A DNA stretch of 64,000 nt from Hyphomicrobiales bacterium (GTDB taxonomy: Bacteria > Pseudomonadota > Alphaproteobacteria > Rhizobiales > Beijerinckiaceae), in assembly GCA_003241815.1 (NCBI GenBank), contig QBLV01000014.1, positions 19,453 to 83,452 on the forward strand, written 5' to 3'. Positions within the stretch are counted from its first letter, which is position 1; every line of letters starts with the position of its first letter. This document shows positions 57,550 to 64,000 of the stretch, piece by piece. The notes beneath the pieces were generated by a model. It was not told where the DNA came from. It saw only the letters and a program-made list of their open reading frames with translations, and made no database searches. Position numbers and translations under genes: made by a program.

Positions 57550-57564
57550 GTTCTCTATTTGTTC
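57550..57564. promoter_or_regulatory. Alphaproteobacterial LexA (SOS) box GTTC-N7-GTTC
   Basis: GTTCTCTATTTGTTC, a perfect direct-repeat SOS box 38 bp upstream of imuA, in the divergent region shared with the OLD-nuclease gene. Confidence 0.8.
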
Positions 57565-57727
57565 TTCGTTATCGACGCAGGAGTCAAGGGTCGATCCGCA
57601 TGACCCGGTTACTGAGCGGCTCTGCTTGGCCGGAGGGGATAGTTTTAAGTGTCGGAAAGCAAAATAGAGTTGTTAGCGGCCGGATAGTCGCGAAAAGTGT
57701 AACAAAGAGCTGGGGGGGGGGAATGAG

Positions 57728-59803
57728 ATGCGAATCAAACATGTCGAAATCGAAAACTTCAGGCTTCTGCGGCATGTCGCGATTGGGCTGGAAGAGAGAA
57801 CGACGCTCATTGTCGGGCGCAACAACAGCGGCAAGACCTCAATCGCAGAGCTTTTTCGACGGCTCCTTTCCGAGCGAGCCCTGTCGTTCAAGCTCGAGGA
57901 TTTTTCTCTGGGATGTCATGAGTGCTTCTGGACGGCCTTCGATGCATTCCGTGGCGGCGCTGCACAGTCCGACGTTCTAGCTCATCTCCCATCGATCACC
58001 ATCACGCTCGATATCGCCTATGATGTCGATGCTCCTGACCTCGGACCGCTCAGCGATTGCATCATCGATCTCAATCCGGATTGCTCGGACGCTCGTCTCG
58101 TTCTCACGTTCGGAGCCCGAGCGACAGCGGCCGAAACGCTTTTCGCGGGGATCGTGGCGCCGGGTGACGACATCGCCGCTGACCGTCTTGCTTTGTTTCG
58201 TGCTCTCGGGAGCCGACTGCCGGCGGCTTACGCCTCATCGCTCGAAGCGGTCGATCCCAATGATCCGACCAACCGTAAGAGTCTGGAGCCCAAAACTCTC
58301 ACCGCGCTGATCCACGGCGGCTTTATCAACGCGCAGCGCGGGCTTGATGATGACACCCATCGTGAGCGCGATGTGCTGGGCAAAGTCGTGGAGGTGCTGT
58401 TTCAGTCAGCGCTGACCGATCCGCTGGACCCGGAGAAGCGCACGACTGCGGAACAATTGAAGGCAGCCGTGGAGCAGATCCAAGGCGATCTGCACGCGGG
58501 CTTCAATGCAAAGCTGACCTCGTTGCTGCCCACGTTCGATTTATTCGGCTATCCCGGCCTAGCTGACCCCGGCCTCGTCACCGAAACAAGTTTCGATGTC
58601 GACAAGCTCCTAAATGACCACACCAAGGTCCGGTATGTCGGCGTCAACGGCGTCACGCTACCCGAGACATATAACGGCCTGGGCGTCCGCAATCTCGTCT
58701 ACATGCTTTTGCAACTGCTGCGCTTCTTTCGGGAGTACCAAGCTACGCCGGCAGCCGCTGGGGTACATTTGGTGTTCATTGAGGAGCCTGAGGCTCATCT
58801 GCACCCCCAGATGCAGGAAGTTTTCATACGTCAGCTCGATCAGATCGCGAACGCATTCGTTTCGCAGTTAAACGAGAACCGTCCTTGGCCCGTCCAGTTC
58901 GTAGTCACCACGCATTCTCCGCATATGGCGAACGAAGCACGCTTCGAGGCGATGCGGTATTTCCTGTCTGTCGCCGACGGCGAAGGCCTTCGACGTTCCG
59001 TCGTCAAAGATTTGCGACAGGGCATGGGAAACGCGACAGCGCCTGATCGAGAATTCCTGCATCAATACTTGACCCTGACGCGTTGCGATCTGTTCTTCGC
59101 AGACAAGGCTGTTCTGATCGAGGGTACGTCGGAGAGGCTCTTACTCCCGGCGATGATCCGTAAGACCGACGCGGCCGCCCCCGGTGAACCGCAGCTTGGC
59201 AGCCAGTACCTGACGGTGATGGAAGTGGGTGGTGCCTATGCACACCGGTTTTTCGACCTTCTCTCTTTCCTCGAATTGCGTGCGCTGATCATCACCGACA
59301 TCGACGCCGTTAAGCCAAATGAGCAGGGCAAGCGCTTGGCCGTGCCCGTCGCGGAAGGCGAGTTCACCAGCAACGGCTGCATCAAGGCGTGGTTCGATAA
59401 TGCGGTGTCGCCGGCTGCCCTTCTAGCCAAGGCGCCCGCTGACAAGATTGTTGGCTGTCGCCGACTGGCCTACCAGGTTCCGGAGGAAGATGGCGGCCCC
59501 TGCGCACGTAGCTTCGAAGACGCGTTCATTCTAGCCAATCCGGAGCGTTTTCCGCTCGGCGACGGGGACGTCGCCGCTCTCGCTTACCAGCATGCGGCCG
59601 AACAGAAGAAGTCGAGCTTCGCCCTTGAGCATGCGATCGAACATACCGATTGGACCGTTCCTCGTTACCTCGCAGAGGGTTTACGCTGGCTCGCGCAGGG
59701 CAATCCTGCCCCTGTCGTGCCGCCGCCCGCTGTCGCTGTGCAGATAGTAGCGGGGCTTGCCGGCGTGGAGGTGAATGTTGCCGAGGTAGGCGACAATGGC
59801 TGA
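57728..59803 (+). CDS. gajA: OLD-family ATPase/Toprim nuclease (class 2, GajA-like)
   Basis: 691 aa with Walker A GRNNSGKTS, Walker B/D-loop LVFIEEPEAHLHPQMQ, TTHSPHM, Toprim Glu AVLIEGTSERLLLP and DxD IITDIDAV. Confidence 0.8.
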   Translation: MRIKHVEIENFRLLRHVAIGLEERTTLIVGRNNSGKTSIAELFRRLLSERALSFKLEDFSLGCHECFWTAFDAFRGGAAQSDVLAHLPSITITLDIAYDVDAPDLGPLSDCIIDLNPDCSDARLVLTFGARATAAETLFAGIVAPGDDIAADRLALFRALGSRLPAAYASSLEAVDPNDPTNRKSLEPKTLTALIHGGFINAQRGLDDDTHRERDVLGKVVEVLFQSALTDPLDPEKRTTAEQLKAAVEQIQGDLHAGFNAKLTSLLPTFDLFGYPGLADPGLVTETSFDVDKLLNDHTKVRYVGVNGVTLPETYNGLGVRNLVYMLLQLLRFFREYQATPAAAGVHLVFIEEPEAHLHPQMQEVFIRQLDQIANAFVSQLNENRPWPVQFVVTTHSPHMANEARFEAMRYFLSVADGEGLRRSVVKDLRQGMGNATAPDREFLHQYLTLTRCDLFFADKAVLIEGTSERLLLPAMIRKTDAAAPGEPQLGSQYLTVMEVGGAYAHRFFDLLSFLELRALIITDIDAVKPNEQGKRLAVPVAEGEFTSNGCIKAWFDNAVSPAALLAKAPADKIVGCRRLAYQVPEEDGGPCARSFEDAFILANPERFPLGDGDVAALAYQHAAEQKKSSFALEHAIEHTDWTVPRYLAEGLRWLAQGNPAPVVPPPAVAVQIVAGLAGVEVNVAEVGDNG

Positions 59804-61562
59804 CGGTCCAGAGAGCCCCGCTGACGCTGCTGGTCGCGTCGCGCTTGAACGGATGTTCGCCTGCCTTGACGAAGGCAGAAGTTTTCGGTTGGAGGCGGGC
59901 GCTGGTGCCGGCAAAACCTATTCACTGGAAAGGGCCCTTCGCCGGCTGATTGACGGACGAGGGACTGACTTGGTCCGCCGCCGCCAGCAGGTCGGCTGCA
60001 TCACTTACACGAACGTCGCCAAGGACGAGATTATCTCGCGCATTCAGGCTCACCCGGCCGTGCGGCCGGAGACGGTCCATGGCTTCTGCTGGTCGATCCT
60101 CCAGGACTTTCAGGCAACATTGCGGGGATTCGTGCCGCAACTTCCCGGCTGGCCGGAAAGGTTAGAGCCCGCTGGGGGAATCGGCGCTCGTAGAGTTCAT
60201 TACGAACTGGGTTACCCGAGCGTCAGCGAAGACCAGGTGACCATTCGGCACGAAGACGTGCTCGCGTTGATGATCGAGGCAATGGCCCTTCCGAAGTTTC
60301 GCTCCGTCCTGACCGCACGATACCCAGTGATTCTAGTCGACGAGTACCAGGACACGGACGCTGCCTTTGTCGATGCGTTGAAGACCTGGTTTCTCGATAA
60401 GGGCGAAGGACCGCTGATTGGTCTGTTCGGGGATCATTGGCAGAAGATCTACGGTGACGGGTGTGGATCCGTGGAGCACGCGGCGCTTGAGGTGATCGAT
60501 AAGAACGCAAACTTTCGCTCGGTGGACCCGATCGTACAGGTGCTGAACAGAATGCGGCCGGAACTGCCGCAAATGGTGAGCGAGCCCGATGCGCCAGGCG
60601 AGGCGCGCGTCTTTCACACAAACGCTTGGCCGGGCGCACGGCGGACCGGACAAGGCGGAGGGCATTGGACGGGCGACACGAGCCCAGAGGCTGCGCGAGC
60701 CTATTTCAGCCACATCAAGGAACGGCTGAGCGATGAAGGATGGGACTTCGCGGTTGGCAAGACCAAGATATTGATGCTCAGTCACAGCGTGCTCGCTCGC
60801 GAGCAGGGTTACGCAAGCATCCCGTCAATCTACGGCCAGTTCAATGATCCGTGGCTGAAGAAGGACGATCCGCACATCAAGTTTCTCGCGGATCACCTTG
60901 AACCTGCCTGTGCTGCGTTCGAGGCGCTCCGCTACGGCGAGATGTTCGAGTCCTTTGGAACGGGGATGCCCCGCATTCGGAAGCATTTGGACAAGGTCGC
61001 ATGGGCCGAGACGATGACGGCGCTGATGGCGTTGAGGAACACCGGATCCATCGGCGATGTGATCGATTTTATCGCCGCGCAGCCGCATATGAGGCTGCCG
61101 GACGCGGTCGAGGAACGCGAGAAGAAGCTAGCAGACGTCGGTGCCGAACCTGTCGAGGGCGAGTCGCGGCGTGTCACTCAGTTGCGCAAATTGCGGCAGG
61201 TCGCTTACGCAGAACTGATAGCGCTGGATCGGTTCATCGACGGTCACACGCCGTTCGCCACGAAGCATGGAGTGAAGGGAGCGGAATTCGAGAACGTGCT
61301 CGTTGTGGTCGGCCGAGGATGGAACAAGTATAATTTCGCCCAGATGCTCGAATGGAGCGACGGTGGGCCGCCGGCCGACAAAGTCGAGTTTTTCGAGAAC
61401 AACCGAAACCTGTTTTATGTCGCCTGCTCCCGGCCGAAGGTCCGCTTGGCGCTGCTCTTCACACAGATTCTGAATGCAAACGCCTTGGGAAAACTGACGG
61501 CTTGGTTTGGCGCAGCGAATGTCATTGCACTCCCGGCGGACCCGGAGGTCGCGCAAGCATGA
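59796..61562 (+). CDS. gajB: UvrD/Rep-family SF1 helicase (GajB-like)
   Basis: 588 aa with Walker A EAGAGAGKTYS and motif II ILVDEYQDTD, and the late motif KHGVKGAEFENVLVV. 8-bp overlap with the OLD gene. Confidence 0.8.
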   Translation: MADGPESPADAAGRVALERMFACLDEGRSFRLEAGAGAGKTYSLERALRRLIDGRGTDLVRRRQQVGCITYTNVAKDEIISRIQAHPAVRPETVHGFCWSILQDFQATLRGFVPQLPGWPERLEPAGGIGARRVHYELGYPSVSEDQVTIRHEDVLALMIEAMALPKFRSVLTARYPVILVDEYQDTDAAFVDALKTWFLDKGEGPLIGLFGDHWQKIYGDGCGSVEHAALEVIDKNANFRSVDPIVQVLNRMRPELPQMVSEPDAPGEARVFHTNAWPGARRTGQGGGHWTGDTSPEAARAYFSHIKERLSDEGWDFAVGKTKILMLSHSVLAREQGYASIPSIYGQFNDPWLKKDDPHIKFLADHLEPACAAFEALRYGEMFESFGTGMPRIRKHLDKVAWAETMTALMALRNTGSIGDVIDFIAAQPHMRLPDAVEEREKKLADVGAEPVEGESRRVTQLRKLRQVAYAELIALDRFIDGHTPFATKHGVKGAEFENVLVVVGRGWNKYNFAQMLEWSDGGPPADKVEFFENNRNLFYVACSRPKVRLALLFTQILNANALGKLTAWFGAANVIALPADPEVAQA

Positions 61563-62185
61563 CCAACTGCGTCCGTCCCGTCACAACTGTCGCTGCTTCA
61601 AAGTCTTTATCCACGGAAGAACTGGATTTCACGGGACTCTCAGAACCCGACGCGCGCAACGTGAGGGCGGCCATCGCCGCTGGCGATAACTTTCACGGCT
61701 ACATACCGTCGGAAAGTCTGCACTTCACCATCCGGAACTACCGCCGTCTCGCCTCTCTCCAAGCGCTCGAGGCGGCTTGGCTCGACGCGTATGTACATGC
61801 TGCGCACTTCCAGCCTTATGGTGTCGAGGCGATCAAAGCTGTGTTTGATGCGTGTGACCGGGATCGTCTTCTTGAGTTGAAGCCGCTGGGCGAAATTGCC
61901 AATATTGAGCGTGGTGGACGGGTGACCCTTTTCCGCGGTTGCGCAGGTCCTGTCCACCACATGGGCATGTCGTGGACGCCATCGCTCGATAAGGCGATCT
62001 GGTACGCGGCCCACCACGCCGAATTCTACGGACTGGACAATCGGGCGGTCTACGTGTCGACAGTCTCGGTGGCGGAAATCTACTGCAGCCTCGACCACTA
62101 TGATTGCGATGTCATTGTCCACCCGAGCAAAGCATGGCGCGTGGAGGTGCCGGCTGAGGAGTATCGATTGGACCGCGATCGCTGA
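61559..62185 (+). CDS. Unknown protein, third gene of the OLD/UvrD operon
   Basis: 208 aa from MTNCVRPVTT, with ATGA overlap onto the helicase stop. No family recognised. It contains LFRG...MSWTPS...DCDVIVHP. Confidence 0.6.
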   Translation: MTNCVRPVTTVAASKSLSTEELDFTGLSEPDARNVRAAIAAGDNFHGYIPSESLHFTIRNYRRLASLQALEAAWLDAYVHAAHFQPYGVEAIKAVFDACDRDRLLELKPLGEIANIERGGRVTLFRGCAGPVHHMGMSWTPSLDKAIWYAAHHAEFYGLDNRAVYVSTVSVAEIYCSLDHYDCDVIVHPSKAWRVEVPAEEYRLDRDR

Positions 62186-62203
62186 CCAACGGGGTGCTTG
62201 TTC

Positions 62204-63367
62204 CTACGATCTGCGCGATGGCCTGGTCACGCGGGTTCTGGTTGAGCGTGGAAGAGCCGGTGGCTTCGTGGCGGTTAGAAGCGCCTCCTCGGCCAATTTC
62301 TGCGGGCTCATGTACTCCATGCGCTCTGCGATGTAGGCACCGAGGAGCTTTGCATCGTTCGCGCTCGGCATCGGTTTGGCATAGAGGAGCGGGAGGAAGG
62401 ATGTAAGCGCCAGACGGTAGAGCGGCGCGGCGTATTCGAACACTGTCCGTTGGGGAAGCGGAAGGATCAACTTCGTGCGGTCGACTGGATTTCCGTGCAG
62501 GAAATCGTTTCTGCAGTCGTAGAGGGCTTGATAGACCCAAGACGCCAGCGTTCGTTTGACCTTGGTCTTTCCCCCCGTGTCATGGGCTAGCGCGGCGCTG
62601 GCCGCGATTGTCCACGGCGTCTTTTCGATCAGCTCGAACACCTTGTCGCGATTGGCTTGGCCGCTTCCGCCGGGATGGACGAGGATCTCGAATGCACTGA
62701 CCCATAGCGAGACCACGCGCCCGACATCATAGAACGTGGTGTCCGTTCCGGCCGGTAGGAGCGAGGCGTTATAGGCCATGTTCAACGAGCGCATAAGAAC
62801 GATGTCCTCCCATGCTGCCTCGGCGGCCTCATAACGCCGCATCCAGCGCGCCAAGAGCGCGGCAAGCAGCGGTTGGTCGATGTCGTTTTCGTCGACGGGC
62901 GTGCGGAAGATTGCGGGCGACGACTGACCTTTGAAGCTTGCAACCTCGTGTGTGCCAAGGATCGCCGGCGTGCTGCCGATGACATCTTCATAGTGGCGAT
63001 CGAGCATCCAAGGATAGATCGCGAAAGCCTCACCGAACATGACGCGATGTCCGCGACGATGACGCAGTTCGAGCGCCCGACCACAGGTCGTTGTCGCGAT
63101 CGCGATGAGATCACGGAAGCTCGCTAGCGCGGAAATGTCGAGAAAGGCCGGCGGTGCTGCTGAATGCACCAACAAAACGGAGGGCTCGAACTTCTGCCCG
63201 AAATTGTCGGAGAACCGATTGAGGAAGCGGCGGAACATGGGCTGTGCGCGCTTGATCGCGGCAACTCGCGGGTCATGGGCCGGCGCGAGTGCGGCGATGT
63301 CGCAGCCAATCGCCGCCTGGAGCGGGATATTCGGCAATACGAAGACAGGGGTCCAGCCAGCGGTCAC
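62204..63367 (-). CDS. Unknown protein with a C-terminal HEPN-like domain (RNDFLHG)
   Basis: 387 aa with a GTG start overlapping the upstream stop (TAGTG). It has VSLWVSAFEILVHP...LYDCRNDFLHGNP, and the Rx4H motif lies at 62495-62512. Confidence 0.6.
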   Translation of the reverse strand: MTAGWTPVFVLPNIPLQAAIGCDIAALAPAHDPRVAAIKRAQPMFRRFLNRFSDNFGQKFEPSVLLVHSAAPPAFLDISALASFRDLIAIATTTCGRALELRHRRGHRVMFGEAFAIYPWMLDRHYEDVIGSTPAILGTHEVASFKGQSSPAIFRTPVDENDIDQPLLAALLARWMRRYEAAEAAWEDIVLMRSLNMAYNASLLPAGTDTTFYDVGRVVSLWVSAFEILVHPGGSGQANRDKVFELIEKTPWTIAASAALAHDTGGKTKVKRTLASWVYQALYDCRNDFLHGNPVDRTKLILPLPQRTVFEYAAPLYRLALTSFLPLLYAKPMPSANDAKLLGAYIAERMEYMSPQKLAEEALLTATKPPALPRSTRTRVTRPSRRS

Positions 63368-63864
63368 TAGGCTGTCGCTTCGGGTAGATGAGCTTCAGCC
63401 TCTCTCAGGCAGCGATCCCAAAACGTCAGGGCTTCTCGGATTTTCGGGAGGATTGGTCGTCCCTCGGCATCGCGCAGCTTGGCGGAGTCGAAGGCAGCGA
63501 CATGCGAGACGCCATCGGGCACGCCGGGGTCGGCTACCACTGCGATGGTGTCGAAGGCATTGTTGCGAAGCTCAAGCCCGCCCTGGAACTCCTTGAGCAG
63601 CACGTTGCGCGCCGGCTCAATAAACTCCCGGAAAATCGGAGCCTCCTTCCACTCCCGCCATTTCGCTGCGCTCCAGGATTGGCGCCGGTCATCCGCGCAA
63701 TCGACCTTGTCGAACACGTGCCCGATGGACCGGAGCAAAGCGATGATCGCAATGTACTGCGACTGATATTCGGCGACTGGCCGCATCATGCTGTCGTAGC
63801 GCTCAAACCGAACGACAAGATCGGTCACGAAGTTGAGTTGCGCGCGCGCCACCAGCATGGTCAT
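63367..63864 (-). CDS. Unknown helical protein, middle gene of the HEPN operon
   Basis: 165 aa. Its ATG overlaps (ATGA) the stop of an upstream partial gene. No family recognised. Confidence 0.55.
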   Translation of the reverse strand: MTMLVARAQLNFVTDLVVRFERYDSMMRPVAEYQSQYIAIIALLRSIGHVFDKVDCADDRRQSWSAAKWREWKEAPIFREFIEPARNVLLKEFQGGLELRNNAFDTIAVVADPGVPDGVSHVAAFDSAKLRDAEGRPILPKIREALTFWDRCLREAEAHLPEATA

Positions 63865-64000
63865 AGCGCGCGGAACGCCGACTCGATGTCGGCGGCAGTG
63901 TTGCTGTCGTCGAAGCTGTGCAAGACGGCTCCGGTTTGCGTGCGGTCCCGGATCTCGATTTTCTCGGCCGTGTGATTGTAGGCGAAGACGTAGGTGTTCC
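63861..64000 (-). CDS. 3' end of an unknown gene continuing beyond the window (first visible gene of the HEPN operon)
   Basis: My own translation of the minus strand gives an open frame ending ...NTYVFAYNHTAEKIEIRDRTQTGAVLHSFDDSNTAADIESAFRAL*. The stop at 63861-63863 overlaps the next ATG. Confidence 0.45.
   Translation of the reverse strand, partial: NTYVFAYNHTAEKIEIRDRTQTGAVLHSFDDSNTAADIESAFRAL

Follow-up and report, generated by a model that had tools for sequence, protein, structure and literature searches.

Gabija defense systems consist of GajA, an ATP-binding cassette (ABC) ATPase with a Toprim nuclease domain, followed by GajB, a superfamily 1 (SF1) helicase. In a variant termed type II Gabija (Liu-DS1), GajA is replaced by GajC, described as a split MazF-like nuclease (PMC13069673). 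Here we examine a locus in a 64,000-nucleotide stretch of DNA from a Hyphomicrobiales bacterium (contig QBLV01000014.1; the whole stretch is referred to as the window, and all coordinates are positions in it), in which a gajA-gajB pair (products A and B) is followed by a third, overlapping gene, called C below. The locus resembles type II Gabija in having an extra, non-canonical protein beside a GajB-like helicase, but here GajA is present and C has no match to MazF in fold searches of the PDB. The name GajC, already taken by the MazF-like protein (PMC13069673), is unsuited to gene C. As judged from sequence, A and B are a complete and ordinary two-gene Gabija of the long GajA/GajB subtype that PADLOC already models. 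The explanation we favor, and consider fairly probable, is that C is a portable add-on captured once by one Gabija lineage, that it is no core component of the system, and that its product is probably similar to ADP-ribosyltransferases (ARTs). Since the pair belongs to a recognized subtype it adds nothing new by itself; the interest of the locus stems from the promiscuous, putatively ART-like family of C.

A Gabija Pair Followed by a Coupled Third Gene

All three genes are read from the + strand. The first, gajA (57728..59803), encodes a 691 amino acid (aa) OLD-family ABC ATPase with a Toprim nuclease domain and shares 8 bp with gajB (59796..61562), which encodes a UvrD-like SF1 helicase of 588 aa. 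Gene C (61559..62185) starts from an ATG lying over the gajB stop codon and encodes 208 aa belonging to an unannotated family. Both junctions can be read directly from the sequence: the A/B junction, ...GACAATGGCTGA, has an 8-bp overlap (ATGGCTGA) that is kept in most of the related loci checked, and the B/C junction, ...GCAAGCATGACC, has a 4-bp ATGA overlap. A Shine-Dalgarno-like GGAGG for C (61544..61548, + strand) is found inside the 3' end of gajB, 10 nucleotides before the ATG at 61559. A longer version of C, 277 aa from an ATG at 61352, receives no support, as the starts of homologues fall at or after the ATGA position.

Both members of the pair match PADLOC models over their full length: A matches GajA PDLC00063 (E-value 6.2e-288; residues 1–670 on profile positions 1–674 of 679) and B matches GajB PDLC00113 (E-value 7.1e-265; residues 4–580 on profile positions 4–577 of 579). 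In Pfam, A matches AAA_15 (E-value 4.4e-50) as well as AAA_21 and SMC_N, and its residues 456–526 cover the whole of PF20469 OLD-like_TOPRIM (E-value 1.3e-15; profile positions 1–67 of 67); a P-loop, GRNNSGKT, can be read from the translation at residues 30–37. B matches PF00580 UvrD-helicase (E-value 8.9e-19). This match and the 8-bp gene overlap place the pair in class 2 of the OLD nucleases, as that class is defined in PMC7049728. No NCBIfam equivalog was found for A or B. The similarity of A to the solved Bacillus GajA is distant (8jq9; E-value 1e-5), and its match to the class 1 OLD protein 6p74 has an E-value of 3e-11; B has no sequence match in the PDB. A exceeds the solved Bacillus chain (578 aa) by 113 aa. 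Because the best PADLOC profiles span 679 and 579 positions, this extra length is the norm for the subtype. We found no experimental data on this Gabija subtype in literature searches.

An earlier, sequence-only reading of this DNA had proposed the same three open reading frames (ORFs), with these sizes, strand and 8-bp and 4-bp ATGA overlaps, had assigned A and B to Gabija (class 2 OLD plus UvrD), had judged A longer than its Bacillus prototype, and had seen no recognizable family in the 208-aa protein. Each of these points is borne out; for the last, C drew no match from Pfam, PADLOC or NCBIfam, and relaxing the E-value threshold to 5–10 for scans of 49 or 55 members of its family did not change this. 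By homology, and by analogy with the two-gene relatives described below, GajA and GajB would be self-sufficient and would carry out the usual DNA-end sensing and nicking.

The ratio of nonsynonymous to synonymous substitution rates (dN/dS) is 0.04–0.07 for gajA and 0.05–0.08 for gajB, indicating strong purifying selection. For C, the dN/dS is 0.17–0.26 (pairs among three Gabija-linked loci, L002, L021 and L025), so it too is under purifying selection, looser than that on A and B; at the protein level it evolves 3–4 times faster than they do. The ATGA junction between gajB and C is kept in L002, L021, L025 and L062. C is a genuine gene, conserved, translationally coupled and under purifying selection. 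A 68-aa ORF that lies over the end of C in L021 and L025 was also considered and is poorly conserved.

The ribosome-binding region of gajA (57712..57727, + strand), as read from the sequence, is a run of ten G residues (G10) followed by AATGAG, and all related loci have a G-rich tract ahead of gajA. At 57712-57721 this tract is G10 in the window and in one near-identical contig (L073) and G5TG3, one base shorter, in three others (L071, L072, L074), which are otherwise ~99.9% identical to the window. It may be a mutable tract that affects Gabija expression. DNA homology with other Gabija loci begins at 57711–57741, within ~17 nucleotides of the gajA start, and therefore no shared promoter moves with the operon.

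Probable Gain and Loss of C within One Gabija Subclade

How regularly does C accompany its Gabija partners? A tblastn search of 72,556 plasmids with GajB returned 34 records, 11 of them at 76–86% identity, and the corresponding search with C returned a single record that holds only a fragment. Thus an intact C occurs in 0/34 of the plasmids with a GajB homologue. The closest relative of the GajA/GajB pair is on a plasmid of Sphingomonas sp. NBWT7 (L059; GajA 89%, GajB 86% identity), where the operon has two genes and no C. Plain two-gene operons are also found on plasmids of Ketogulonicigenium vulgare, Sphingobium SYK-6 and Rhizobium sp. 11515TR; in all, C is absent from L059, L060, L061 and L063.

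Several relatives retain C in various stages of decay. In Rhizobium indicum (L062), a 76-aa ORF overlaps gajB by ATGA and consists of the first ~55 residues of C followed by unrelated sequence. C is frameshifted in L049 and L050, where an 87-aa ORF that might be taken for a separate gene is the frameshifted 3' part of C, and it is degraded in L047. The converse is seen in L018 (3925-7210), in which C is intact and an opposite-strand ORF of 473 aa interrupts gajB; this is probably an insertion element.

In a neighbor-joining tree of GajB, the C-bearing loci form one subclade (the window, L002, L018, L021 and L025, with decayed copies in L047, L049, L050 and L062). Nested next to the window is L059, which has no C; C is also missing from the outer branches. 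The Gabija-linked C proteins likewise form one clade in a neighbor-joining tree of C, and DNA homology is colinear across A, B and C in L021, L025 and L050. The simplest history is that the ancestor of the subclade captured C once and that its descendants lost it repeatedly, through deletion in L059, truncation in L062, a frameshift in L049 and L050 and decay in L047. Because of these losses and the arrangement in L018, we conclude that C is dispensable for the persistence of intact GajA and GajB, and that C persists without them. The window and the Sphingomonas plasmid are a natural pair of near-identical Gabija operons with and without C, which makes the question of what C contributes directly testable.

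C Homologues Are Mostly Found in Other Contexts

A word-indexed search found close homologues of C in 171 clusters, which are mainly alphaproteobacterial and extend to cyanobacteria and Arcobacteraceae. An exhaustive profile search enlarged this to a superfamily of 715 clusters at 50% identity, nearly all of them stand-alone proteins of ~200 aa, and no Pfam domain is seen in any of them. The ten longest members contain no Pfam domains, so domain fusions are uninformative. A second database search with a profile of the C-terminal domain returned only unannotated proteins, and we found no description of the family in literature searches.

We surveyed loci with a C homologue, 16 from genomes and 42 from metagenomes; ~38 distinct loci were left after duplicates and short contigs were dropped. 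About 8 of the ~38 are linked to Gabija, and ~80% lie in other contexts. GajA and GajB precede C only in the window, in the near-identical L017, and in L002, L021, L025, L050, L049, L018 and L047. Elsewhere, the neighbor is a NACHT protein preceded by a kinase (L003/L023, L004, L030), an SMC-like ABC ATPase of ~1000 aa (L007, L028, L029), an 887-aa ABC ATPase (L006, L008), QatABCD followed by a PIN protein (L001, L019; QatA E-value 8e-303, QatC E-value 1e-195), HipA (L011/L046), one of three unannotated families of 183, 210 and 805 aa, or guaA or guaB. Some copies have no upstream gene on the same strand, including one that is divergent from the Lamassu gene LmuA (L036/L037). In about a dozen loci, C is alone or behind guaA or guaB. 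Remote members of the superfamily directly adjoin integrases or a prophage end, and phage homologues exist. Taken together, the sequences and neighborhoods indicate that the family is large and unannotated and that it is tied to mobile elements and defense islands.

The coupling seen in the window is not peculiar to Gabija. An [A/G]TGA overlap with C is found for six unrelated genes upstream of it: those encoding GajB, NACHT, HipA and the 183-, 210- and 805-aa families. Where C has an upstream neighbor on the same strand, its start tends to overlap that gene's stop codon in this way, and at the sequence level the overlap means that C is made together with whichever defense protein precedes it. 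The possibility that C travels as a cassette with conserved flanks was rejected, as DNA homology across contexts is limited to the ORF.

Two recurrent arrangements deserve mention in their own right. C homologues lie immediately 3' of guaA or guaB in five loci (L005, L010, L015, L022, L054), which points to the gua 3' end as an insertion hotspot for C-bearing elements. The 210-aa protein is followed by the ~1000-aa SMC-like ATPase and then C in L007 (1247-5482) and L028, and it is joined directly to C by an ATGA overlap in L032 (6075-7267) and L033; the 210-aa protein also recurs with C in L029. These loci may represent a separate candidate system of which C is a constant member.

A Putative ADP-Ribosyltransferase-Like Domain in C

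The AlphaFold2 (AF2) model of C is of high confidence (predicted local distance difference test score, pLDDT, 92.6) and has two parts. The N-terminal domain is predicted to be all-helical (residues ~29-115; 61643..61903, + strand), and three positions of the helical part, N60, L64 and E71, are near-invariant over the superfamily. The C-terminal alpha/beta domain (residues 116-208; 61904..62182, + strand), with the modeled topology beta-beta-alpha-beta-beta-beta-beta over residues 121-195, resembles the R-S-E class of ARTs. Comparison with solved structures is less informative. Foldseek against the PDB, a check that the sequence-only reading had recommended for the 208-aa protein, gave nothing significant with either the full model or a domain-only model (best E-value 0.9), and PDB profile searches with full-length and domain-only alignments returned chance antibody matches or nothing. 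Among phage proteins, the C-terminal domain matches phrog_4776, a function-unknown family of PHROGs (E-value 1.3e-4), and hypothetical proteins of mycobacteriophages. A BFVD search with C found only uncharacterized phage proteins, including a Gordonia phage model.

The resemblance to ARTs lies in the order of the secondary-structure elements and in three motifs (all on the + strand): R126-G127 (61934-61939), S138-W-T140 (61970-61978) and D182-x-D184 (62102-62110). At a superfamily identity of ~25%, R126, W139, T140 and A146 are invariant and S138 is found in 53/55 members, giving the consensus YRGvaG...G.SWT.SLD.AcWFA...R.E.EFI..P. In the AF2 model, R126 and S138 are on strands (121-129 and 138-140, respectively) and a helix (143-157) comes next. 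The acidic pair is more variable in kind: among 49 close homologues it is DD in 37, EE in 11 and mixed in 1, and 45/55 superfamily members have E-x-E. The two acidic residues thus change in concert, from EE to DD.

We compared the C-terminal domain with an alignment of T4 ModA and ModB and relatives of ModB, all of which carry PF26816. The program hhalign aligned the two with 81% probability (E-value 1.2e-5), and with 65% probability when ModB alone was used. Rerun locally, the alignment reached a score of 34; 80 controls with shuffled columns gave 11.5 +/- 2.0 (maximum 18.5), which corresponds to a z-score of about 11, and a reversed-alignment control gave 8.7. The confident core of the alignment puts R126-G127 on ModB R73-G74 and S138 on the invariant ModB S99. 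D182-x-D184 falls on ModB E171-x-E173 solely in an extended, low-confidence part of the alignment, and the three motifs are colinear.

C and ModA/ModB agree in motif order and spacing: an Arg-Gly pair lies on the first strand, Ser-x-Thr leads into a helix in which Ala and Phe/Tyr are conserved, and, by the extended alignment, an acidic-x-acidic pair comes ahead of a strand. Both are ~200 aa with a helical N-terminal part. They differ in that the R-to-S spacing of C is shorter (12–16 aa), the clade of the window has DxD rather than ExE, and there is no direct hidden Markov model match. C is also encoded in bacterial defense islands and not in phages alone, and its activity is a predicted one. 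One UniRef entry (UniRef100_A0ABV0KTZ9), identical in sequence to the C homologue P0095, bears the label "RES domain-containing protein", which offered another assignment, to the RES-domain phosphorylases of nicotinamide adenine dinucleotide (NAD+), but when P0095 and 48 relatives were run through hmmscan against Pfam no RES domain appeared at E-values up to 5. We conclude that C is probably a divergent ART-like module, and an ART-like activity that uses NAD+ seems somewhat likelier than not.

What might such a module do? Most plausibly, C would act in an NAD+-dependent manner, either by ADP-ribosylating a target in the phage or the host or by hydrolyzing NAD+. It could be an optional extra effector of Gabija, or a self-sufficient module that rides on Gabija expression. 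The helical domain might serve in target recognition or autoinhibition, which is speculation. ART toxins of toxin-antitoxin and defense systems include DarT, CmdT and ParT, and defense systems have swappable effector modules. C is like these in being small and catalytic-looking, in occurring with many sensor nucleoside triphosphatases (NTPases) and in being carried on mobile elements; unlike them, it is a separate gene rather than a fused domain, has no cognate antitoxin or macrodomain neighbor, and is often alone.

Alternative Explanations for C

The sequence-only reading had suggested that the operon might be an undescribed three-component variant of Gabija. Under this explanation, C would be integrated with GajA and GajB in one subclade as a second effector, a specificity subunit or a regulatory subunit, and would be needed for full defense. 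Part of the suggestion stands: C is a real, coupled gene under purifying selection, it was acquired once and then co-inherited with GajA and GajB, and within the subclade it shows the ATGA junction and the colinear DNA homology described above. Its coupling to other NTPase-type sensors is also as expected of a shared effector. The remainder does not hold up, as C is neither specific to Gabija nor needed by close relatives. The closest GajAB relative and all plasmid homologues are without an intact copy; C therefore is missing beside close homologues of the pair, and yet is under purifying selection where it remains. It has decayed while GajA and GajB stayed intact (L062, L049/L050), and in L018 it is intact behind an interrupted gajB; most members of its family are away from Gabija, and its protein evolves several times faster than A or B. 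We regard an integrated three-component system as unlikely. Somewhat less likely still is an autonomous C, mechanistically unconnected to its upstream neighbor: a promoterless single-gene module for defense, superinfection exclusion or counter-defense on behalf of the mobile element, which borrows transcription at the ends of operons. The dozen or so copies that are alone or behind the housekeeping genes guaA and guaB would fit this, as would the remote relatives that adjoin integrases or a prophage end, the phage homologues, and the restriction of inter-context DNA homology to the ORF. So would the fact that no promoter-like site was found on the + strand before C in the window. However, a start/stop overlap with six unrelated partners exceeds what read-through requires and suggests that coupled synthesis has been selected, and NTPases and kinases are over-represented among those partners that can be identified. 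That C is no enzyme at all, but an adaptor, regulator or decoy whose R/S/acidic pattern is convergent, we hold to be very improbable. It would account for the lack of a significant Foldseek match to solved ARTs, the lack of a Pfam ART match and the DxD in the clade of the window, but not readily for the near-complete conservation of R126, S138, T140 and the acidic pair at ~25% superfamily identity, which is typical of an active site, nor for an hhalign score far over that of shuffled controls with all three motifs colinear with ModB.

Several observations weigh against the explanation that we prefer, a dispensable, portable and ART-like C. With respect to dispensability, C and its ATGA coupling have been kept under purifying selection across ~18–20% divergence of GajA and GajB, to which a functional partnership would also be fitting, and the frequent coupling to NTPase and kinase partners is more suggestive of cooperation with the protein encoded upstream than of indifference to it. 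With respect to the ART assignment, which is weak by the usual standards, the confident hhalign stretch comprises 36 columns, and the C of the window has D-x-D where classical enzymes carry E-x-E. Pfam ART models, including PF26816, gave no match to C members at E-values up to 10, nor did the PDB profile search return an ART. In the Foldseek search, the ART-fold proteins Arr-2 (E-value 1.4) and TreTu (E-value 5.3) and a fungal NADase lie in the noise between 1.4 and 5.3. Finally, C has no antitoxin-like neighbor, which makes a constitutively active toxin unlikely. We nevertheless continue to favor a two-gene Gabija to which a portable C was added. It is tempting to go further and regard C as a new and widespread ART-like family of accessory effectors (~700 clusters at 50% identity), coupled behind unrelated NTPase and kinase sensors. 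This broader proposal is doubtful, if less so than the three alternatives above; were it true, C would be a portable second arm that upgrades Gabija, NACHT, SMC-like, Qat and HipA systems, or a backup when phages block the primary effector.

In any case, C represents a sizeable unannotated family whose confidently predicted fold matches no solved structure, which bears catalytic motifs resembling those of ARTs and which is habitually found coupled 3' of diverse defense operons and on mobile elements. If it proves to be an active NAD+-using enzyme, it would constitute a new portable module of defense or counter-defense, and a clean test case for how immune systems recruit and then discard accessory effectors.

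Genomic Setting of the Operon

An SOS mutagenesis cassette had been proposed beside the operon, and the upstream neighbors on the minus strand are indeed consistent with imuA-imuB-dnaE2: the imuB product matches PF00817 (IMS), and imuA and dnaE2 were identified by reading the sequence. In the 215-bp divergent region between imuA and gajA, GTTCTCTATTTGTTC at 57550-57564 forms a GTTC-N7-GTTC direct repeat, 38 nucleotides upstream of the imuA start and 164 nucleotides before the gajA ATG. We take this to be the alphaproteobacterial form of the LexA box; it presumably governs imuA-imuB-dnaE2.

Downstream, two minus-strand genes that lie outside the Gabija operon converge on C, encoding proteins of 387 aa (62204..63367) and 165 aa (63367..63864). 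The sequence-only reading had described them as a second, defense-like operon. The genes are present, but that label finds no support: neither protein matches a family in Pfam, PADLOC, NCBIfam or PHROGs. They accompany C in near-identical contigs (L017, L071-L074) and are missing from every other C or GajAB locus. The convergent stop codons of C and the 387-aa gene are separated by 18 bp (62186-62203), in which no terminator-like hairpin was found, and transcription of the two operons may collide or overlap.

The order of genes beyond this point was read on contigs that carry an identical C protein and extend past the window. They show imuB, the imuA region and gajA-gajB-C, then, converging on these, an operon for the 387-aa, 165-aa and VCH_CASS14 proteins. 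Next come a toxin-antitoxin-like pair (HTH_37/Gp49), a gene resembling excisionases (HTH_17) and the gene for a tyrosine integrase of 471 aa. The part from the 387-aa gene onward covers 62204-64000 of the window and beyond (L071:8055-12795). About 230 bp past the integrase, the otherwise near-identical contigs diverge at a sequence resembling the 3' end of a tRNA (GGTTCGATTCCGGCCAGGGGCACCA), and this divergence marks an integrative island of ~9.3 kb. Gabija and C thus ride on a ~9.3-kb, integrase-bearing island inserted beside imuA-imuB-dnaE2. Neither ARAGORN nor Rfam detects an intact tRNA or tmRNA at the integrase end. No att repeats were found: the left junction and the tRNA-like fragment share no direct repeat, and the window itself does not contain the fragment. 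The GC content falls from ~0.69 to 0.59 at ~57.5 kb and does not recover before the window ends.

As is usual for Gabija, relatives of the pair are found in defense-island and plasmid settings with Shedu, AbiE and Qat. The locus departs from other Gabija loci in the distance of A from the solved Bacillus protein and in the third gene appended in one subclade. Around this subtype, the same neighbors recur in L059, L002 and L025: AbiEi/AbiEii, Shedu, a YhaN-family SMC-like ATPase, Qat and an Mrr-like nuclease. It looks as though alphaproteobacterial plasmids and islands share a common, reshuffling pool of defense-island genes.

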